From: Clostridia bacterium
Lineage (GTDB): Bacteria > Bacillota > Clostridia > Oscillospirales > CAG-272
Direction: 5' to 3'
DNA: 43,050 nt
Assembly: GCA_017958705.1 (NCBI GenBank)
Contig: JAGDCE010000030.1
Coordinates: 1-43,050 of the forward strand
Shown: piece by piece, positions 1,830 to 36,262 of the stretch
Layout: each line of letters opens with the position of its first letter
Position numbering within the stretch: the stretch's first letter is position 1
Made by a program: the position numbers and the translations under genes
The notes under the pieces: generated by a model
Seen by the model: only the letters and a program-made list of their open reading frames with translations
Told to the model about the DNA's origin: nothing
Database searches by the model: none

Positions 1830-3243
1830 CGGCAAAGCACTGATCAACATTTCAAAAAAGACCTTTATTCAGGTGACGGCGCTGCTTCTGGCGCTCGTCG
1901 CACTGTCTGTCGTTCTGACGTACGTGATCCCCGGCGGACAGTTCGGCACGACGGAGAACGGGGAAGTCGACTATTCTCAGTACATCCGGCGCGACGACAT
2001 CAAGGGGATCAACGTGCTGAAAGGCGTTTTCTCGCCGGTCCTCGTGTTCTTCTCGTCAAACGGCCTGTCGCTTATAATGCTGTCGCTGTTTTTGCTGATC
2101 ATCTCGTCGTCCTTTCAGGTGATGAACGACGTTGGCGGCATCGAAGCGCTGATCGGCACCGTATCCGACAAGTTCAGGAACAGAAAAACACTGCTTACAA
2201 TCGTCGTATCGTTCTTCTTCATGTGCTTCGGCGCATTCCTCGGGCTGTTTGAGGAAATGCTTACGATGCTGCCGATAATGACGATGCTTTGCATAGCGAT
2301 AGGCTACGATTCTTTCACGGGATTCCTTATATCTATCGTCGCCTGCGGGTTCGGATTTGCCAGCGCGATAACAAATCCGTTCACGGTACTGCTCGCATCC
2401 GAGATAATAGACGTTAACCCGATGGAGCACGTTTACTACAGATTCATCGTGTTTTTCGTGATGTACGCGCTGCTGATCGGTTTTATCCTTCTGTATACGC
2501 GCAAAATAACAAAAGACCCGTTAAAGAGTCTTACATATGAGCACGACGAGCGTATCAAAGCCGCCAAAAACGAAACGGAAACCGAGCAGAGAACTGACAA
2601 AAAGAGAATTGCGACAGTCTATTCCGTATTTCTGCTCGCGGCGCTTGCGTTGATCATAATCTGCTCGTCGCTGTCCGCACTGAGAGATTATACGGTCCCG
2701 ATCCTCATCGCGTATTTCCTTATATTTGGTATATTAGCCGGCATAATCTGCGGAAACAAGCCAAAATTCGTTTTTAAAAGCTTCCTCAAGGGTCTTGTCG
2801 GGGCGCTGCCGACGCTCGCATTCATAGCGCTTGCCGCAGCCGTCAAATACGTATTCGACGAAGGCGCGATAATGCCGACGATCGTATGGCAGATTAACAA
2901 TCTGACGGCAGGAAAGAACATATTCGTCATGGCGCTCGTCATATATCTCATAATCCTTTTGCTCGAATTCTTTATCTCCTCGTCCACGGCAAAGGCGATC
3001 CTCGTCATGGGCATACTCGCCGCGACGTCCGTAGGGCTGAGCAAATCTATGCTCGTGCTTATATACACGTTTGCGGACGGTTATACGAACGTGATCTTTC
3101 CGACGTCACCGGTCCTTCTGATATCTCTTTCGATGATCGAGGTTGATTATTTCAAGTGGGTAAAAAAGAGTCTGCCGCTGTTTGCGGTAAACGTGATCGT
3201 CGTTCTGGCACTGATCGCGCTCGGTATCATAATCGGATACTGA
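1816..3243 (+). CDS. YfcC-family integral membrane transporter (putative anion/amino-acid permease)
   Basis: Recalled similarity to E. coli YfcC, e.g. GYDSFTGFLISIVACGFGFASAITNPFTV and FADGYTNVIFPTSPVLL. Many TM segments. Preferred start is ATG 1816 (MKKDNGK...), overlapping the upstream stop by 14 nt. TGA stop at 3241-3243. Confidence 0.85.
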   Translation: MKKDNGKALINISKKTFIQVTALLLALVALSVVLTYVIPGGQFGTTENGEVDYSQYIRRDDIKGINVLKGVFSPVLVFFSSNGLSLIMLSLFLLIISSSFQVMNDVGGIEALIGTVSDKFRNRKTLLTIVVSFFFMCFGAFLGLFEEMLTMLPIMTMLCIAIGYDSFTGFLISIVACGFGFASAITNPFTVLLASEIIDVNPMEHVYYRFIVFFVMYALLIGFILLYTRKITKDPLKSLTYEHDERIKAAKNETETEQRTDKKRIATVYSVFLLAALALIIICSSLSALRDYTVPILIAYFLIFGILAGIICGNKPKFVFKSFLKGLVGALPTLAFIALAAAVKYVFDEGAIMPTIVWQINNLTAGKNIFVMALVIYLIILLLEFFISSSTAKAILVMGILAATSVGLSKSMLVLIYTFADGYTNVIFPTSPVLLISLSMIEVDYFKWVKKSLPLFAVNVIVVLALIALGIIIGY

Positions 3244-21283: not shown

Positions 21284-22015
21284 TCAGGACTGTTCCCGTT
21301 TGATGAAATACGCGATGAACTCGACGTTTCCGTCGCCGCCTTTGATCGGCGAACCGGTCGTGCCGATATGCTCGAAGCCGCACGCGGCGGCTGACGCGAC
21401 GACTTTATTTATAACGTCGTCACGGCAAGCCGGGTCGGCGATACCGTGCTTTCCGATATTTTCACGCCCCGCTTCGAACTGGGGCTTTATCAGCGATATG
21501 AATTTGCCGCCGTCCTTCAGGATCGCGTAAACGTTTTTATGAAGCAGCGTCTGCGAGATGAACGATACGTCCATGACGGCCGTGTCGCACCGCTCGCCCA
21601 AAATGCCGCCGTCCAGCGTGCGCGCGTTAAAGCCTTCGATATTGACGACTCTGGCGTCGTTTATGAGTTTTTGATCGAGCTGGCCGTGGCCGCTGTCGAT
21701 GCAGTAGACTTTTACGGCGCCGTGCTGAAGCAAACAGTCGGTAAAGCCTCCGGTCGACGCGCCTACGTCGGCGCAGACGTCTCCTGATACGTCGATGCCG
21801 AAATGATCGAGCGCGTGAGCCAGTTTGAGTCCGCCGCGGCTTACGTATCTCGGGATCTCTGTGACTGTAAGCTCGCAATCCTCCGGCAAAAGCTCCGACG
21901 GCTTGTAAACGCGGCGTCCGGATGCGAACACATTTCCCTCCGCTATGAGCGACTGAGCCGCGCTGCGGCTTTTGGCAAGCCCTTTTTCAAACAGCAGTTT
22001 GTCTGCTCTCTGCAT
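21284..22015 (-). CDS. tlyA: TlyA-family rRNA 2'-O-methyltransferase (S4 + FtsJ domains)
   Basis: 243 aa. N-terminal S4-like domain (RADKLLFEKGLAKSRSAAQSLI), YVSRGGLKL, and SAM motif DVGASTGGFTDCLL. Confidence 0.9.
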   Translation of the reverse strand: MQRADKLLFEKGLAKSRSAAQSLIAEGNVFASGRRVYKPSELLPEDCELTVTEIPRYVSRGGLKLAHALDHFGIDVSGDVCADVGASTGGFTDCLLQHGAVKVYCIDSGHGQLDQKLINDARVVNIEGFNARTLDGGILGERCDTAVMDVSFISQTLLHKNVYAILKDGGKFISLIKPQFEAGRENIGKHGIADPACRDDVINKVVASAAACGFEHIGTTGSPIKGGDGNVEFIAYFIKREQS

Positions 22016-22662
22016 TATTTCGTATCCTTGTGTTCGTTCGATTTGCGGCGGGAGAAGATGCTCAGCACTTTTGCCGCGCCGTAAACGATATTGTAGCTGT
22101 AATTCATCCCGATGGATTTACCGAGCGCCTTGCCGCCGACGGTAATGCCGGCGATCAGCGAGGTTATGATGAGGTTTCCGAAAAACTCCGAATCGGGGTC
22201 GGTAAACAACTTGACTATTATCGCCGTGCCGGTCGCACCGGAAACGACGCCCGCGATATCACCGATTACGTCGGCGCAGATATTCGTCATCTTTTCGGCG
22301 TTTTTGATGAGATAAACCCCCATGTTGCCGGCCTTCAAGCGGCGCGCCGACATCGAAACGAACGGTTTAATATCCGCTGTCGTGATCGATATCGCGACTA
22401 TATCGAACAGGATGTTTATAAGTACGAAAAGAAAAAGAATAACGAAAGCGACCGCCAGATTGAGCTTTTCGAGCACTTCCGTCGACAGAAGCGTCATAAG
22501 TACCGAGATGGCGATGCTTATCAGCGCCGCCTTGAAAGCCCATTTCCAGTTCAACGCGCCTTTCGGCTTGTTCTTTTTCTTTTTTATTCTTTTTTCCTGT
22601 TTTACTTCCTGCTCTGTCTGTTCCTGCGTACTTCGCGGAGGTGTATCTTCACGTTTATCCAA
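22015..22662 (-). CDS. oapA: 4-TM membrane protein with a Lys-rich N-terminal tail; proposed OLE-associated protein A (OapA; distant CNNM/DUF21-like look)
   Basis: 215 aa, TTG start with GAAAGG SD 8 nt upstream. Four predicted TM helices, with ADVIGDIAG in TM3. It sits immediately downstream of the long noncoding segment and upstream of tlyA-nadK-argR-recN, the position occupied by oapA in OLE loci. Confidence 0.6.
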   Translation of the reverse strand: MDKREDTPPRSTQEQTEQEVKQEKRIKKKKNKPKGALNWKWAFKAALISIAISVLMTLLSTEVLEKLNLAVAFVILFLFVLINILFDIVAISITTADIKPFVSMSARRLKAGNMGVYLIKNAEKMTNICADVIGDIAGVVSGATGTAIIVKLFTDPDSEFFGNLIITSLIAGITVGGKALGKSIGMNYSYNIVYGAAKVLSIFSRRKSNEHKDTK

Positions 22663-22689
22663 AACAAATTCCTTTCAAATACAGGGACG

Positions 22690-23285
22690 GTAACAGACTG
22701 CGTAAACCTTGCGGTATGAGGTCGAGTACGATTTCCGCATCTCCCACCTCTCGTTACCGATCGGCGGTTTCCCTTTACGGGAGAAGACCGTGCGTCGCCG
22801 TCACGGGGACTCGATTGCCTTGTGATTTCCGCACTGCAATCCGCAGTCTGCCATATTTAATTAAAAATAAACAGCCTAGGGGATTTCCCCGATCGAGAGG
22901 TCAGCCGTTTTAGCCTCTTTTGCAGCGACGGTTTCATCAGGCGATAACAGAAGGCGCCCGGCCAAGGCACCGCTGCTTTGTTCCCGAATTCGCCGGAACC
23001 ACTCAAGGCAGGCTACGCTATCCACAGCAACACGCACCGCGTGATAGGTTTAATCCTCTGCCCGTAATATGTCTTCGCATGTACGTCAATACCACAAGCA
23101 AAGGCCTCCATGGTAAGAGGGTCGCCACCGCATGCCGTTGCGGCACGCCCTCAGACCTATCTCCCAGCACCCACCCCAAACTGGGCGTAAGAAGCAAGCA
23201 CAAGGAGCTTCATCGATATGCCCTTTGACGGATTTTTAGGCCCGTCCTCAAACGGCTTCTCTCAAACTAGGATACTGCACCGTCT
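22690..23285 (-). ncRNA. ole: Probable OLE (ornate, large, extremophilic) RNA, about 600 nt; ends approximate
   Basis: The 699 nt gap between the ispA stop (23362) and the oapA-like start (22662) has no credible ORF. It holds many strong local hairpins on the minus strand (e.g. GCGTGCCG-caa-CGGCATGC, GGGG-aaat-CCCC, ACTGC-ggatt-GCAGT, TCCC-gtaaa-GGGA) and an internal AU-rich tract. The synteny nusB..xseA-xseB-ispA-[RNA]-4TM protein-tlyA-nadK-argR-recN matches the published OLE neighbourhood. No covariance-model search was possible. Confidence 0.6.
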
Positions 23286-23290
23286 TTTAT

Positions 23291-23318
23291 ATTATACAAC
23301 ACTTTTCAGTAAATGCAA
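23291..23318 (-). promoter_or_regulatory. Candidate sigma-A promoter in front of the OLE-like RNA
   Basis: The minus strand reads TTGCAT (23318-23313), a 16 nt spacer, then TATAAT (23296-23291). It lies 44 nt after the ispA stop, with no hairpin terminator between, so read-through from ispA is also possible. Confidence 0.4.
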
Positions 23319-23361
23319 GATAAAAATGCAAAAAAACGAATAAATTTTCAAAAAATAAGTC

Positions 23362-24249
23362 TTATTTCCGTCTATGAAGCAGAAAATCCGCAAGCTCGCA
23401 CAGTTCCGCTGCGCGTCTGCCGAACTTTTCAAGCGCCGATTTCGCCTTATTCGTCAGCTGTGCGGCGAGATTCTGGGCTTCCTCGAGCGTCATATACGAT
23501 AAAACCGTCGTCTTGCCGTTTTTTTCGTCCGAGCCGACAGGCTTTCCGAATTCGCTCTGATCCGCTATGACGTCAAGTATGTCGTCTCTGATCTGGAACG
23601 CCCAGCCCACGCACGCGCAATATTCATCGCAAAGACGGTAAGTCTCCGCGTCTTCGCATCCGGCGGCGGAAAGTCCGAGCCTCGCCGTGCAGCGCAGCAG
23701 CGCGCCGGTCTTCAGTGCGTTCATTTTCTCGTATTCGCGACGGTCGAGCGGCTTGCTCTCACCGATCATATCCATGACCTGACCGCCGACCATGCCTTTG
23801 TAGCCGGCAAGCTCCGACAGAGCCTTAATGGCTGAGACTTTGGCTTTATCCGTCGCGCCGGAATCGGCGATTATCTCAAAAGCGTACGTCAGAAGTCCGT
23901 CGCCGGCGAGCGTCGCCGTCGCTTCACCGAATACCTTATGGTTCGTCGGTTTTCCGCGCCTCAGATCGTCGTTGTCCATGCACGGCAGATCGTCATGTAT
24001 GAGCGAGTACGTATGTACGCATTCGAGCGCGCACGCGAAATCGAGGGCGCGGCTGTCAAAACGGTCCGCGCCGCAAAGCTCGGAAAACAGCAGCGTCATA
24101 AAAGGTCTGATCCTTTTGCCGCCGTTTTTCACGCTGTATCCCATCGCCTCGGTTATGACCGGGTAATCGGGATCGTAATTTGAAAGGAGCTCGCCGAGAC
24201 GCGCGTTGACTTTTACGTTATATTCCTTCAGTTTTTCTTCGATGCTCAT
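23362..24249 (-). CDS. ispA: Farnesyl/geranyl diphosphate synthase (polyprenyl synthetase family)
   Basis: 295 aa. First Asp-rich motif LIHDDLPCMDNDDLRRG and second Asp-rich motif FQIRDDILD. Confidence 0.92.
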   Translation of the reverse strand: MSIEEKLKEYNVKVNARLGELLSNYDPDYPVITEAMGYSVKNGGKRIRPFMTLLFSELCGADRFDSRALDFACALECVHTYSLIHDDLPCMDNDDLRRGKPTNHKVFGEATATLAGDGLLTYAFEIIADSGATDKAKVSAIKALSELAGYKGMVGGQVMDMIGESKPLDRREYEKMNALKTGALLRCTARLGLSAAGCEDAETYRLCDEYCACVGWAFQIRDDILDVIADQSEFGKPVGSDEKNGKTTVLSYMTLEEAQNLAAQLTNKAKSALEKFGRRAAELCELADFLLHRRK

Positions 24250-24446: not shown

Positions 24447-25647
24447 TCAAAAACACCTCGTCTACGGTCGAGCTGACCGTGCCGTCCTTCATCGTAATCT
24501 TTATCCTGTCGCCTGCGGAAAGCTCCGCGGCGCACGTTCCGCGCCTGCCGTCCTTCTCAACGTATGCATATCCGTTTGCCAGAACGCGAAGTGGGCTCGA
24601 CGCCTGAAGCTTTGCCGCCGCCGTCTCGAAATCCTTTTTCCGCCTCAGCCGTATTATATTCAGTTTATCTGCGATACGCGTGCTCACCGAATCGAGTGAA
24701 ACGCGTCTGTCCGCTATGAAGTTGTCAAGCGACGTCAGCGCGCGCGACGTCCGCATGCGCTCGAGCTTCGTCCTCTGCGCCGTCAGCGTCTTGTTGACCG
24801 ACGCGATCATCGCGTCACGCTGTGCTGAAAGTTTATGCTTCAGCGCGGCTTTGTCAGGCGTCGACAATTCGGCGGCGTGAGAGGGCGTGGACGCGCGCAC
24901 GTCCGCGGCAAAGTCGCAGACGGTGAAATCCGTCTCGTGCCCTACCGCTGAGATCACCGGTATCTGCGAGCCGCGCACGGCGTAGGCGACCTCCTCGGTA
25001 TTGAACGGCTGCAGATCCTCTATCGATCCGCCGCCGCGGCCGATTATGATCACGTCGACGTGTTCTTTCGTATTGAAATACGAGATGCCGTCGACGAGCG
25101 TTTTGACCGCCGCCGCTCCCTGCACTGACGCGGGATAGACCGAAAGCTCGCAAAGCGGATAGCGGCTCGTCGCAATGTTGATTATGTCCCTCACCGCGGC
25201 GCCGGTCTGCGAGGTTATCACGCCGATCTTCTGCGGATACTGCGGCAGAGGTCTTTTCAGTTTTTCCGAAAACAGCCCTTCCGCTTCAAGCTTTTTCCTT
25301 ATCCGCTCGGCTTCTATATACAGCGCGCCGATCCCGTCCGGGATGATGTCGCTGACGTACAACTGATATCTGCCGTCCTGCGGATATACGCTTATCCTTC
25401 CGGTGCACAGCACCTTCATGCCGTTTTCCGGCTTCATCCGCAGATTGACGTTCTGGAATCTGAACATCACGCATTTGAGCTGCGCGCCGGCGTCCTTCAG
25501 CGTGAAGTACATATGCCCGCTCGCGAAATGGTGATTGAAGTTCGAGATCTCTCCGCTTACCGCGACGCTGCCGAGATACGGCGAGTTGTCTATCGTCAAT
25601 TTGATTATTTCCGTAAGCTCAGTTACGGTCATCGTTCTTTTATCCAT
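24436..25647 (-). CDS. xseA: Exodeoxyribonuclease VII large subunit
   Basis: 403 aa. N-terminal OB fold (VSGEISNFNHHFASGHMYFTLKD) and catalytic core (IIGRGGGSIEDL, ISAVGHETDFT). Confidence 0.93.
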   Translation of the reverse strand: MDKRTMTVTELTEIIKLTIDNSPYLGSVAVSGEISNFNHHFASGHMYFTLKDAGAQLKCVMFRFQNVNLRMKPENGMKVLCTGRISVYPQDGRYQLYVSDIIPDGIGALYIEAERIRKKLEAEGLFSEKLKRPLPQYPQKIGVITSQTGAAVRDIINIATSRYPLCELSVYPASVQGAAAVKTLVDGISYFNTKEHVDVIIIGRGGGSIEDLQPFNTEEVAYAVRGSQIPVISAVGHETDFTVCDFAADVRASTPSHAAELSTPDKAALKHKLSAQRDAMIASVNKTLTAQRTKLERMRTSRALTSLDNFIADRRVSLDSVSTRIADKLNIIRLRRKKDFETAAAKLQASSPLRVLANGYAYVEKDGRRGTCAAELSAGDRIKITMKDGTVSSTVDEVFLNEK

Positions 25648-26566
25648 TTATAAACCTGTCGTAAGTTATGAGAGCCGTCCCCGCGGCGTTGTCCGCCGAG
25701 AACGCCGGCTCCGCGAAATACGCGCCGTATTTTTCAGTAAAATACTTTCTCAGCATAGAGTTAGACGATACTCCGCCGGAAAACAGGACCGGCAGATTTT
25801 CATCGTGTAAAGCGTTATCTGTCATCGCGGCGACGGTCCGTTTTATGTATTCGATTATATACGCGGCAACGAATTCGGGCGGCTCTTTGCCGTCGATCAG
25901 CTTCTTCGCCTTGTTCTCCACCCCGGAAAGATTGCATCTGCAGCCGTTAACACTGATCTTAATCTGCGGCATCTTTCCAGTGAAGCCCGCCGCAAGTTCG
26001 TCGATGCGCCTGCCGCACGGGAACGGGAGCCCGAGCATGACGCCGACGCGGTCGATTATCTGACCGGCCGTAACGTCAAGCGTTCCGCCCTTGATCTCGC
26101 AGTCGTAGGATGCGCCGTTTTTTGTAACTTTCAGAAGTTCAAACGTGCCGCCGGACAGATGATACGCGTAAAACCGCCCGGTATCGGGCATTTTTGACGA
26201 ATAGACCGCCGCTTTTATATGTCCTTCCTGATGCGATGAGGTATAGACCGGGACTTTCAGCGCCCGGCCGACCGCCGCGGCTGACGCTTCTCCGCACAGA
26301 AAGCACGGCATGTACGAGCCTTCAACGTTTCTCGGCCTGTCGCTGTATCCGACCGCAGAAACCGTCGACAGATCGGTCGTAAGCCGCTCATACGCGCGCG
26401 GCAGATTTACCGTGTGGGCAAACACCGCGTCGCTCTGACGCAGACCGACGCCGCCGTCTTTTACAGGCAGCGGCAGTTTGATATTCTCGATTATCACGCC
26501 GTCGCGGCAGACGGCCAGTGACGTCGTATAATTGCTCGTATCGATGCCGAGCACGGTCACGCTCAT
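25640..26566 (-). CDS. Kae1/TsaD (glycoprotease, peptidase M22) family paralog
   Basis: 308 aa. It aligns by eye to TsaD: GIDTSNYTTS (vs GIETSCDET), SHQEGH (HxxxH metal site), YHLSGGTFELL, GQIIDRVGVMLGLPFPCG, FSGGVSSNSMLR, SADNAAG. It is shorter and more divergent than canonical TsaD. Confidence 0.7.
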   Translation of the reverse strand: MSVTVLGIDTSNYTTSLAVCRDGVIIENIKLPLPVKDGGVGLRQSDAVFAHTVNLPRAYERLTTDLSTVSAVGYSDRPRNVEGSYMPCFLCGEASAAAVGRALKVPVYTSSHQEGHIKAAVYSSKMPDTGRFYAYHLSGGTFELLKVTKNGASYDCEIKGGTLDVTAGQIIDRVGVMLGLPFPCGRRIDELAAGFTGKMPQIKISVNGCRCNLSGVENKAKKLIDGKEPPEFVAAYIIEYIKRTVAAMTDNALHDENLPVLFSGGVSSNSMLRKYFTEKYGAYFAEPAFSADNAAGTALITYDRFING

Positions 26567-27079: not shown

Positions 27080-28027
27080 TTATTCGGCGGGCTGCTCTTC
27101 GGCGGTCATCGCCTCATCCGTGTCGGTGCTCTCGCTCTTGAACTCGCGGTAATCGAAGGTTATAACGTCCTTCTCGCTTATCAGAGTGTCGCTCAGATCG
27201 TTGATTATGATCTCGATCGCCTCTTCGTCCTCTTCGTCACCGTACTCCTCGCCCATGATGCAGACCCAGCGGTGCTCTTCGTCGTTTTCAAGATTACCGA
27301 TCTTGACCACGCGGCGGCCGTCTTCCGACAGAGTCATGTTGAATTCGTCCAGCAGAGGTTTGACTTCCTCATCTTTTTCGTTGATGTATTTTGTCTGCAG
27401 GCACTTTGCTATCGTGAGCTCGGGTTTGTTGCCGAATACGTTGTACTGCGTTTCCGACAGTATCGTGTCGGCGCCGTTGGAAATGGCGAACTTTACGAAG
27501 AAGTTGCGCTCCGTCTTTTCCAGAAGCTGGAATTTGAGCAGGTCGTAGTTGTGAAGATCCGCGGTGAACGGATCGGCTACTTCGCCGTTGATGGTGAATA
27601 CCCATTCATATATATCGTTTGAAGTGGAGAGCTTGCCGGCGGTGTTTCCGTTCACGCTGTCAAGCGTGTATTCGATCTCTCCGTTGAACTGCGAAATGAC
27701 AACGGTGGGGAGCTCCGCGTTTTTGTCCTTGTTCCTGACGACGACTTCAAGCGCGAGCATGCCGGTGGGCTTTGTGCGGTAGCGCTGACGCGCGGCTTCC
27801 TCGGTGAGAAGTCCGCCCGCGGTCGTCTCCTCTTCCTCGTACGGATCCTGCGGCGCAACTCTTACGCCGTCCGCGCTGTAAAGCGTTTTATTGTTCATAC
27901 CGTACACGTACACTGATACGTACGCGTTAGCATCGCTGTAATTGCTTCCGTTGCCGACGCATGACGTGATCGATATCATCACCATGACGGCCGCAAGCAA
28001 CGTCGTTACGATTCTTTTGATTTTCAT
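27080..28027 (-). CDS. Hypothetical secreted lipoprotein with acidic C-terminus (possible DUF4430-like beta-grasp repeats)
   Basis: Preferred start is ATG 28027 (MKIKRIVTTLLAAVMVMISITSC, lipobox ITSC), preceded by AGGAGGAG. Motif WVFTINGEVADPF...DLLKF and a weaker second copy RWVCIMGEE...DVITFDY. I recognise no enzymatic motif. Confidence 0.6.
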   Translation of the reverse strand: MKIKRIVTTLLAAVMVMISITSCVGNGSNYSDANAYVSVYVYGMNNKTLYSADGVRVAPQDPYEEEETTAGGLLTEEAARQRYRTKPTGMLALEVVVRNKDKNAELPTVVISQFNGEIEYTLDSVNGNTAGKLSTSNDIYEWVFTINGEVADPFTADLHNYDLLKFQLLEKTERNFFVKFAISNGADTILSETQYNVFGNKPELTIAKCLQTKYINEKDEEVKPLLDEFNMTLSEDGRRVVKIGNLENDEEHRWVCIMGEEYGDEEDEEAIEIIINDLSDTLISEKDVITFDYREFKSESTDTDEAMTAEEQPAE

Positions 28028-28073
28028 ACGGGAAATACTCCTCCTGATCAGCACAATATGCAATTCTTTTTTA

Positions 28074-34362: not shown

Positions 34363-35309
34363 GCTTTTATACCCCGTTTGTATTTATCGGCGATCTCGAC
34401 GATCCTCTTTAGTCTGTGGTTGATCCCGGATTTCGTCAGTTTGGGAACGGAAAGCTCCGCGAGCTCCGCAAGCGACGCCTGCGGGTTTTCAAGCCGCAGA
34501 TCCGCGGTCTTTTTCATATCCTCGGGCAGATCTTTCAGCAATCCGTTGTTCTTCAGATATTCCACCGCGCTCATGACTTCCGCTGCGGCGCTGACGGTCT
34601 TTTTGATATTCGCGGTATCGCAGTTGACAGCACGGTTCGCCAGCCCTCTGTTCTCACGGATTATTGACTCGTTGATATAGTCGAATCCGGCGGAGTTCGC
34701 GCCGATATAAGCAAGAAAATCCGCAATATCGCTGTTCTTTTTATAGTAGATCACGTAATTCGATCCGCGAACGGTCAGGCGCGGCGCGATGCCGGCCTTC
34801 GTGCAGAGATCGACGGTGTCGGCTCCGAGATTCTTATAAGGCGTCGATATTTCAAGGTGGAAAGAGCTGTCAGGACGGCTGACCGTGCCGGCGGCGATGA
34901 ACGCGCCGCGCAGATAATAAGAACGGCACTTCTCACATCTTCCGTCCGTGATATTTTTATTTACTCTGTACAGAGATATCGAGCCGCGGGGCATGTCCGC
35001 AGACATTTTGGCGATCTCTTTTCTGTCGGACACGGTTATTTTATAACTGTTCACCGCGCTCGTGCTCTCATCGTCCTCGCGGCTGTTCTTGCGCTCGGAC
35101 ACGTACAGATTGCACTTGATCCCGTATAACTCGGACAAAAGCTCTGTAACGTCGTTCGCGGCGGGCTCTATTTCCGTGATAAGCTTTATCTTTTCGCGGC
35201 TGAATATCCCGGCGTACGTAAGTATTCCCATAAGAAACGCTTTTTTGCAGCAGCGTTTTACGGGAAGCTCCTCCGATAAGGATTTTTTCGTTTCACTTGA
35301 GAAAGACAT
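34359..35309 (-). CDS. whiA: DNA-binding protein WhiA (sporulation/cell-division regulator)
   Basis: 316 aa. N-terminal SFSSETKKSL..., LAGLIDADG-like middle (YLRGAFIAAGTVS) and C-terminal HTH (SLAELAELS...TKSGINHRLKRI). Confidence 0.9.
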   Translation of the reverse strand: MSFSSETKKSLSEELPVKRCCKKAFLMGILTYAGIFSREKIKLITEIEPAANDVTELLSELYGIKCNLYVSERKNSREDDESTSAVNSYKITVSDRKEIAKMSADMPRGSISLYRVNKNITDGRCEKCRSYYLRGAFIAAGTVSRPDSSFHLEISTPYKNLGADTVDLCTKAGIAPRLTVRGSNYVIYYKKNSDIADFLAYIGANSAGFDYINESIIRENRGLANRAVNCDTANIKKTVSAAAEVMSAVEYLKNNGLLKDLPEDMKKTADLRLENPQASLAELAELSVPKLTKSGINHRLKRIVEIADKYKRGIKA

Positions 35310-36199
35310 CAGTCGATCACCCTTATTTCACACTCTATTTCAATGCCTTCGCGTTCTTTTATGACTTTTTTGATATGGTCGACGAGTTTGAGCACGTCGT
35401 CCGCGGTCGCGCCGCCTTTGTTTATAACGAATCCCGCGTGCTTTTCCGACACGGCGGCGCCGCCCACGGTATATCCTTTCAGCCCCGCCTCCTCGATCAT
35501 CTGACCGGTGTATCTGCCGGGATAACGCTTGAACGTTGAGCCGGCGCTCGGATAATTAAGAGGCTGCTTGCTCTTTCTGCGATCGATCAAATCGTCCATT
35601 TTCGCTTTTATAACGTCTTTGTCGTCGGGCGTAAGCTCCATAACGGCTGAAAGGATGATATATCCGTTATCTTCAAATATGCTGTGCCTGTAGCCGAAAT
35701 CACATTCTTCCGCGGATAACACGACGATCTTGCCGATACCCGGAGAAAAAGCCGTGACGGATCTGACTATATCTTTCATCTCTCCGCCGTACGCACCGGC
35801 GTTCATGAATACCGCGCCGCCGACGGAACCGGGTATTCCGTACGCGAATTCGGCGCCCGATCATCCTGCGTTATACGCCGCGCGGCAAACGGTATGAAGC
35901 GGCGCGCCGCAGCAGGCGTAGACCGTTTTTCCCTCGACCCTGACGGAGTTCAGCGATTGCGTAAGTATCACCGCACCGTCGTATCCACTGTCGGAAAACA
36001 GAACGTTCGACCCGCAGCCGAGGACTGTATATCTTATCCCGAGCGAAATGCATTCGTTCACGGTGTTTATAAGCTCTCTTTCGCTTCCGGGATAAACCGC
36101 GGTACACGGACCGCCGATCCTGAAAGTCGTGAATTCCGAGGCGTTTTTGTTAGCGTAAGGTATCCTGTTGACGTTGAGAAACTCGATCAGTTTTTCCAT
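35309..36199 (-). pseudogene. murB: UDP-N-acetylenolpyruvoylglucosamine reductase MurB, interrupted by one in-frame TGA (35863-35861)
   Basis: The two track ORFs (35861..36235 and 35309..35806) are in the same frame. Reading through the TGA gives ...[34 protein letters not shown]..., collinear with B. subtilis MurB ...[27 protein letters not shown]... The stop sits at the conserved Leu (TTA to TGA is one change). Preferred start is ATG 36199 (MEKLIEF) with GAGGAAG SD. Confidence 0.85.
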
Positions 36200-36233
36200 A
36201 TCTTCCTCACGGTATAATATCGGTATTATAATC

Positions 36234-36262
36234 ATATTACTACAAAAAAACGATTATTTCAA
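36234..36262 (-). promoter_or_regulatory. Candidate sigma-A promoter for murB-whiA-dnaE
   Basis: The minus strand reads TTGAAA (36262-36257), a 17 nt spacer, then TAATAT (36239-36234). A second TATAAT-like box lies just downstream. Confidence 0.4.

Follow-up and report, generated by a model that had tools for sequence, protein, structure and literature searches.

What occupies the 699-nucleotide (nt) gap that follows ispA in a 43,050-nt stretch of DNA from a Clostridia bacterium (assembly GCA_017958705.1, contig JAGDCE010000030.1; the whole stretch is called the window below)? An initial annotation had read this gap as the gene of an OLE RNA, and the gene behind it as that of the partner protein OapA. 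We conclude that the minus strand carries a genuine full-length ole gene at 22671..23299 and that the adjoining open reading frame (ORF) at 22015..22662 is oapA, with a probability of about 0.96. The locus is a textbook member of an already known class, found by a standard Rfam scan, and the initial annotation was correct in holding that only the locus and its context are specific here. The features at the center of this reading are the following.

22671..23299, minus strand: OLE RNA gene with short flanks (Rfam RF01071)
about 23284..22686, minus strand: predicted base-paired core of the OLE RNA, from the 5' to the 3' strand of P1, roughly 600 nt
22670..22676, minus strand: oapA ribosome-binding site GAAAGGA, 7 nt ahead of the TTG start and situated at the end of the Rfam match
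22015..22662, minus strand: oapA, 215 amino acids (aa), TTG start, beginning 8 nt after the Rfam match

The gap spans 22663..23361, between the ispA ORF and the next minus-strand ORF. The ORF ends at 23362 and 22662 bear out the 699-nt spacing that had been given for the ispA stop and the next gene, and all of the features that had been described were found where the initial annotation had placed them.

The gap encodes a full-length OLE RNA

The whole window was scanned with Rfam 15 at gathering thresholds. The OLE model RF01071 matched 22671..23299 on the minus strand with 413 bits (E = 4.5e-118) and was covered over positions 1-616 of 616. The minus-strand scan with the OLE covariance model, which had been suggested as a check, therefore returned 413 bits against a gathering score of 50. 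OLE was the sole Rfam match anywhere in the window; the complete coverage of the model and the absence of a rival Rfam family in the window support the OLE reading. Furthermore, the genome belongs to Bacillota, and oapA directly follows ole in it.

For comparison, at least 120 loci (given here by L numbers) were retrieved from GTDB genomes with a conserved OLE 16-mer as the search pattern, and 18 of them were scanned with Rfam. OLE was found in 15 of the 18; the remaining three, L013 (Bacteroidales), L024 (Chloroflexota), and L066 (Caldivirga), were without OLE on the Rfam scan and are chance matches to the pattern. No close relative of the window was among the loci listed. Three related metagenomic contigs carry an OLE match of 421-427 bits at the same intergenic position. 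Elsewhere, scores were 465-528 bits in Bacillaceae and Thermosediminibacteraceae, with Bacillaceae OLEs about 100 bits above the window RNA, and 398-444 bits in Oscillospiraceae and Christensenella.

An alignment of 16 OLEs including that of the window was made with MAFFT and folded with RNAalifold. The consensus fold held 160 pairs, 103 of which showed compensatory double changes. Compensatory changes were also seen within the clade of the window, for example C-G to U-A in the P6.1 stem of L121. Among the invariant columns are the near-invariant blocks GGUGCAGUAU.CUAGU, CCUAAAAAUCC, GUAGCCUGCCUUGAG, GCAAAAGAGGCUA, and UAAAGGGAAACC, all of which are present in the window. Across four related contigs, nucleotide identity to clade relatives was 93-95% for the RNA versus 70-80% for oapA and 72-77% for ispA, and the 70 variable columns of the RNA were split 24/24/22 over the three codon phases, without codon periodicity. 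Because of this identity relative to the flanking genes and this even split, we conclude that strong purifying selection acts on a structured RNA and not on a coding sequence. Small ORFs do occur in the gap, at 22641..22913 (90 aa) and 22920..23228 (102 aa) on the plus strand, together with a minus-strand ORF of 61 aa. All frames of the RNA region are interrupted by three or more stops, and the relatives do not share the same longest open frames, in line with the view of the initial annotation that no credible ORF is present.

Some of the retrieved OLEs depart from the common form. Extra hairpins in certain Oscillospiraceae OLEs (L011, L080, and L044) bring their lengths to 670-680 nt; in L011, ~28 nt are inserted between P5 and P6, around 2890..2925, and L080 and L044 have long insertions in P7/P8. 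One locus, L047, comes from a metagenome-assembled genome (MAG) labelled Desulfovibrionaceae and contains an OLE of 482 bits in a Bacillota-type xseA-xseB-ispA-ole-oapA-dxs-tlyA context; it is probably a mis-binned contig.

Loops and predicted protein-binding sites of the RNA

The window RNA is of the full-length type, as opposed to variant 1 (TANB77) and variant 2 (RF39) defined by Fernando and Breaker in 2024 (PMC11332333). It retains P7, P8, and a long P9, shows no large deletion relative to the model, and contains all of the stems P1-P15. The loops and motifs considered below are located as follows, in the order of the transcript.

23230..23240, minus strand: P4 A-rich loop CCUAAAAAUCC, a dimerization contact in published OLE structures, near-invariant in the 16-sequence alignment
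23208..23216, minus strand: 5' strand of the OapC kink turn (k-turn), UCGAUGAAG in J4a/5, identical to the consensus
23180..23188, minus strand: P5.1 loop ACGCCCAGU, GCCC invariant in the 16-sequence alignment
23156..23165, minus strand: 3' strand of the k-turn region, GGGAGAUAGG, with AUAGG here
23131..23140, minus strand: P6.1 loop CAACGGCAUG, complementary to the P5.1 loop, GGCAU invariant in the 16-sequence alignment
22958..22965, minus strand: P9 terminal loop UUGGCCGG with palindromic GGCC, from the model match and the alignment
22788..22806, minus strand: P13 hairpin CCGUG-A-CG[GCGA]CG-CACGG, capped by a GNRA tetraloop, with one bulged base two pairs beneath it
22752..22759, minus strand: P14.1 GNRA tetraloop CG-GUAA-CG, a predicted weak secondary OapB site (PMC7936274)

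In structures determined by cryo-electron microscopy, the P4 A-rich loop makes dimer contacts (PMC12265935, PMC12286853), the P5.1 loop kisses P6.1 of the second RNA, and the P9 loop kisses itself within the dimer (PMC12265935). All loops that mediate dimer contacts in the published OLE structures are intact in the window RNA. The P9 hairpin (22953..22971, minus strand; GGUGCCUUGGCCGGGCGCC followed by a U-rich run) was flagged by a terminator scan; it is an internal structural stem in the middle of the RNA and not a terminator.

Binding of OapB needs a GNRA loop and a one-nucleotide bulge (PMC7936274). P13 has this OapB-binding architecture and is the predicted site. The OapC k-turn has been defined as J4a/5 plus J5/6, with a C helix containing a C-G pair, a 3-nt bulge, and tandem sheared pairs (PMC9723947). 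Its 3' strand reads AUAGG in the window, L121, and L124 within the 16-sequence alignment, as well as in L123 in the comparison of the clade. The other 13 aligned OLEs (12 from outside the clade plus L011) have mostly UAAGG, UUAAGG, or UAAAGG, with L062, L061, and L011 deviating in other ways. When paired manually after PMC9723947, AUAGG places A-U instead of A-A at the 2b-2n position, and the pairing of GG with U and C is conserved in the window. Apart from this AUAGG in place of U(U)AAGG, the window RNA differs from full-length OLE RNAs in a small AU-rich hairpin within a variable helix around 22862..22880. It is like them in its end-to-end match to the model, P1-P15, the conserved loops, P13 with GNRA loop and bulge, the ispA and oapA flanks within a nusB-to-recN cluster, and the Bacillota host.

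The 215-aa protein is OapA

The protein encoded 3' of the RNA was compared by BLASTP with that encoded 3' of OLE in Lederbergia lenta and showed 35% identity (E = 7e-38). The first ORF 3' of OLE in 15 other species, which span Bacillaceae, Alkaliphilus, Thermosediminibacteraceae, Christensenella, Congzhengia, and Oscillospiraceae, was in every case homologous to it. An alignment of 11 OapAs had 20 invariant columns, including D87, PF100-101, NA121-122, D131, G134, D135, SG141-142, and TVxGKxxGK 174-182. The ADVIGD motif noted previously occupies residues 130-135, and its DxxxD (D131-V-I-G-D135) is invariant and lies in the third helix; DxxxD sets OapA apart from CNNM domains (PMC11332333).

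A structure was predicted with AlphaFold2 from 47 homologues (mean predicted local distance difference test score of 78.7). The model contains long helices at 39-66, 69-95, 122-153, and 161-187, in agreement with the four transmembrane helices that had been proposed; the fourth contains Gly and Lys, as in all OapAs. The only meaningful PDB matches by Foldseek were two chains of the archaeal CNNM protein MtCorB (7m1t; probability of 1.00 for both, E = 0.013 and 0.17), and the Pfam CNNM family PF01595 scored 20.4 bits, below its cut-off of 28.4. This comparison with CNNM and CorB, likewise suggested in the initial annotation, thus gave a sub-threshold CNNM score and a CorB fold match, as reported for OapA: H. 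halodurans OapA was also matched to MtCorB, and remote CNNM-like similarity has been described for the family (PMC11332333). A sequence search of the PDB with the 215-aa protein returned nothing even at E = 10; therefore, there is no solved OapA structure. No CBS-pair or CorC_HlyC domain was found in the protein with Pfam.

Given its homology to OLE-adjacent proteins, the DxxxD motif, the sub-threshold CNNM score, and the lack of CBS and CorC domains, we conclude that the 215-aa protein is an OapA orthologue and not a CNNM transporter. It resembles OapA of Halalkalibacterium halodurans and its orthologues in its position after ole, its four helices with DxxxD in helix 3, its PF, NA, SG, and TVGGKAxGK blocks, its basic cytoplasmic cluster, and its remote similarity to CNNM. 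Orthologues from Bacillaceae other than H. halodurans were used for these comparisons. The location of the basic segment had been misjudged: rather than a Lys-rich tail, such as the long C-terminal one of Bacillaceae OapA, the window protein has an N-terminal cluster, KRIKKKKNKPK at residues 24-34, and its C terminus is only mildly basic. This cluster precedes the first transmembrane helix, as in several other Clostridia OapAs. An N-terminal basic arm was considered as an unusual trait and rejected, as OapAs of Christensenella, Congzhengia, Thermosediminibacteraceae, and other Clostridia also have basic N termini.

Gene order and transcription of the locus

Gene order was assigned with Pfam and NCBIfam. 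On the same strand, nusB, a TsaD-like gene, xseA, xseB, ispA, the RNA, the 215-aa protein gene, tlyA, nadK, argR, and recN follow one another, confirming the order from nusB to recN as it had been claimed. The exact arrangement is common to the relatives L121, L123, L124, and L126. The genes flanking ole and oapA and the promoter-like element are located as follows.

23362..24249, minus strand: ispA (farnesyl diphosphate synthase; NF045485, 319.8 bits, cut-off of 275)
23291..23318, minus strand: promoter-like box with -35 TTGCAT at 23318..23313, a 16-nt spacer, and -10 TATAAT at 23296..23291
21284..22015, minus strand: tlyA (rRNA 2'-O-methyltransferase; TIGR00478, 215 bits, cut-off of 185.8)

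The TTGCAT-16-TATAAT box of the initial annotation can be read directly from the sequence. It is kept in L121, L123, and L124 as TTGCAT or TTGAAA followed by TGGTAAAAT, an extended -10, while the other upstream spacer diverges. OLE of H. halodurans has a proximal promoter of its own (PMC3413148). The box at this locus is a putative promoter, with the start predicted near 23284.

Downstream, the oapA stop and the tlyA ATG overlap by one base at 22015 (TAATG), and the overlap in relatives is 1 or 4 bases; the RBS and TTG start of oapA are likewise kept in L121, L123, and L124. The TAATG overlap suggests that tlyA belongs to the same transcription unit as oapA. No terminator was found between ole and oapA in a scan of 21900..23500, and the three terminator-like sites in that scan are internal OLE hairpins or lie within tlyA. 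This overlap and the missing terminator point to ole-oapA-tlyA-nadK-argR-recN as a single transcription unit. As a separate observation, the stop/start overlap in the dxs-less arrangement suggests that translation of OapA is coupled to that of the rRNA 2'-O-methyltransferase.

Alternative explanations

The structured region could instead be a cis-acting 5' leader of oapA-tlyA-nadK-argR-recN, such as a riboswitch or an attenuator, and not a stable functional RNA. A leader would fit with the lack of a terminator between the RNA and oapA, and the oapA ribosome-binding site within the end of the Rfam match, with the TTG 8 nt beyond that end, implies that at least some transcripts must be ole-oapA fusions. 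However, OLE is matched end to end and no riboswitch or leader family was matched, OLE RNA in H. halodurans is seen to accumulate in one very stable form of about 600 nt (PMC3413148), and a size of about 600 nt, some 25 helices, and trans-acting dimerization loops exceed any known leader; we regard this explanation as extremely unlikely. The chance that the gap hides a protein-coding gene is close to negligible. Although the two plus-strand ORFs and the minus-strand ORF of 61-102 aa do exist in the region, the stops in every frame, a longest open frame that shifts in frame and length among relatives, the lack of 3-base periodicity, compensatory changes in the stems, and a nucleotide identity above that of the real coding neighbors all speak against translation. 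Decay of a nonfunctional OLE remnant in a gut organism might be suspected from the score of 413 bits, below those of Bacillaceae and Thermosediminibacteraceae, and from the deviation of the k-turn 3' strand and a few OapA residues from the other loci compared. Yet no feature of the locus is more conserved across four relatives than the RNA, whose stems and functional loops are all preserved; oapA is also intact, its start and ribosome-binding site being conserved, and OLEs of Oscillospiraceae and Christensenella score similarly, which leaves a relic as improbable as a leader.

A further possibility is that the 215-aa protein is a stand-alone Mg2+ transporter of the CNNM/CorB/MpfA type (PF01595) that adjoins OLE by chance. 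The two share the fold of the transmembrane domain, for which MtCorB 7m1t is the top and only meaningful structural match, the CNNM family is weakly matched in Pfam, and OapA and MpfA have been regarded as remotely homologous proteins of related physiology (PMC11332333). Nevertheless, the window protein falls below the CNNM gathering cut-off, is only 215 aa long without CBS-pair or CorC domains, has four and not three transmembrane helices, and contains the DxxxD that CNNM domains lack. Its whole membrane domain also aligns with proteins encoded directly after OLE in 15 other species, and a chance neighbor of this kind is very unlikely. OapA may itself have a transport-related role, which is a question of mechanism more than of identity.

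Several observations weigh against the assignment of a functional ole-oapA pair. At the level of transcription, a sigma-70 consensus scan of 21900..23500 called no promoter; the -35 is weak, and the box went uncalled because TTGCAT fits only 3 of the 6 positions of TTGACA. The promoter call therefore rests on direct reading and conservation, and we infer the promoter, the RNA ends, and the stability of the RNA at this locus. Within the RNA, none of the 12 aligned OLEs from outside the clade has the same 3' k-turn strand. For the protein, a strict Kyte-Doolittle threshold finds the first three of the four helices only, the Foldseek E-value for CorB is modest (0.013), and OapAs of the clade carry CAD (ahead of the motif) and PFV in place of the CND and PFH of other OapAs. 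In addition, neither oapB nor oapC was seen in the 43-kb window, with no KOW or L7Ae match among the small ORFs scanned, and the composition of the OLE complex in this organism is a prediction.

Proposed mechanism and partner proteins

The steps that would lead from this locus to a functional particle are taken from the OLE RNAs of Halalkalibacterium halodurans and Clostridium. The RNA would be transcribed from the box at 23318..23291 and probably also by read-through from nusB-xseAB-ispA, as both an own promoter and upstream read-through operate in H. halodurans (PMC3413148, PMC12265935). It would fold into about 25 helices and dimerize via the P4 A-rich loops, the P5.1/P6.1 kissing loops, and the palindromic P9 loop. 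An OapA dimer would then tether the RNA to the cell membrane or insert it there; cooperative OLE RNA binding and membrane tethering by OapA have been shown only for H. halodurans (cited in PMC12265935). OapB would be bound at the P13 hairpin with its GNRA loop and bulge, and OapC at the k-turn flanking P5. The resulting ribonucleoprotein may contribute to tolerance of short-chain alcohols, cold, excess Mg2+, and poor carbon sources.

The genes oapB (YbzG, with a KOW domain) and oapC (YbxF, L7Ae-like) are normally unlinked to ole, and the window has essentially no unassigned coding space. Published phylogenetic profiling would lead one to expect both genes in this genome, and mpfA to be missing. 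Leading proposals for OLE are a stress-integrating 'bTOR' hub and a membrane-spanning RNA; we know of no organism in which the precise biochemical activity of OLE particles is known.

The clade of the window together with L121, L123, and L124 could assemble a slightly different OLE particle, characterized by the AUAGG k-turn, an OapA whose basic RNA-facing cluster sits on an N-terminal arm, the CAD/PFV residues, and a dxs-less tlyA fusion. We consider this idea tentative and rather unlikely. If true, dependence on OapC might be changed or lost, and the functional link to rRNA methylation might be tighter than that to isoprenoid synthesis.

The neighborhood is a recurrent minority variant

The retrieved loci, of which there were at least 120, were surveyed with tblastn; the size of the subset differs for each question, and the counts are among the matches listed. 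The gene after oapA was dxs in 40 of 55 loci, tlyA in 9, and another gene in 6, with the window excluded. A TsaD-like gene lay between nusB and xseA in 5 of 42 loci, and ispA was immediately upstream of OLE in 63 of 97. The canonical order nusB-folD-xseA-xseB-ispA-ole-oapA-dxs-tlyA, continued by nadK/argR-recN, was verified as far as tlyA in Lederbergia lenta and Salisediminibacterium. The window has the shared genes in the same order and on the same strand; in contrast to the canonical neighborhood, it lacks dxs between oapA and tlyA, and folD is replaced by the TsaD/Kae1-like gene. Both local differences described in the initial annotation are therefore real, but neither is peculiar to this locus, as each recurs elsewhere. 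The missing dxs and the TsaD-like gene were considered as features that would make the locus unusual, and this was rejected by the survey; the arrangement is a recurrent minority variant and not a novelty. The window also contains dxr and ispG, with Pfam assignments taken from the near-identical contig L126; the methylerythritol phosphate pathway is therefore present, and dxs must be encoded elsewhere in the genome.

The TsaD/Kae1-family protein (308 aa; 25640..26566, minus strand) lies between nusB and xseA, where Bacillaceae have folD. It scored 66 bits with Pfam TsaD and was far under the NCBIfam TsaD and Kae1 cut-offs (94 versus 296). The HxxxH metal-site motif is kept (HQEGH, residues 112-116), relatives have the gene at this position too, and 5 of 42 other OLE loci, among them L062 from Alkaliphilus transvaalensis, have a homologue there.

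Two of the surveyed loci, L008 (an Ammoniphilus MAG) and L028 (a Bacillota MAG), had the OLE pattern followed directly by dxs, about 0.8 kb downstream. No tblastn match to OapA was found in either, although L008 extends several kilobases further downstream. At these two loci, oapA may be missing next to OLE, or it may have diverged strongly.

Host and significance

The host is an uncultured, spore-forming member of the Clostridia, a mesophilic anaerobe and not an extremophile, and it falls within the known range of OLE hosts. The window carries spoIVA as well as whiA, in keeping with a reported correlation between OLE and sporulation genes (PMC11332333). ENA assemblies labelled XIEF21-1 contain near-identical contigs. 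We take this label to denote a study of ruminant gastrointestinal MAGs, and the host is apparently of ruminant-gut origin. A mesophilic gut anaerobe known only as a MAG is itself a point of difference from other hosts of full-length OLE RNA.

OLE is among the largest and best-conserved bacterial noncoding RNAs of unknown biochemical function, so correctly annotated copies help comparative studies. This copy is one more case in which the most conserved element of a locus falls in a stretch of about 700 nt that protein gene callers leave empty. It contributes one full-length OLE/OapA pair, from a mesophilic and spore-forming Clostridia lineage that apparently lives in the ruminant gut, and it documents the recurrence of dxs-less and TsaD-like-containing neighborhoods. 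It neither opens a new question nor makes an existing one more testable. Only the k-turn 3'-strand variant and the clade-specific OapA substitutions are mildly unusual.

Other observations in the window

A 327-aa protein (27080..28063, minus strand) had no Pfam match. It has an N-terminal hydrophobic segment followed by Cys (…MISITSCVGNG…) and is lipoprotein-like. Its position between the penicillin-binding protein 1 gene and nusB is kept in all relatives, where the protein has 307-325 aa and likewise no Pfam match.

The murB gene (35309..36235, minus strand) is split by an in-frame TGA at codon 125 (35861..35863; …RAAYNAG*SGAEF…). This is a single T-to-G difference; it reflects an error in the assembly or consensus, or else a nonsense variant at the strain level, and not recoding. 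Codon 125 is TTA (Leu) in contigs of the same organism from other samples, and murB of L129 is intact, with 294 aa.

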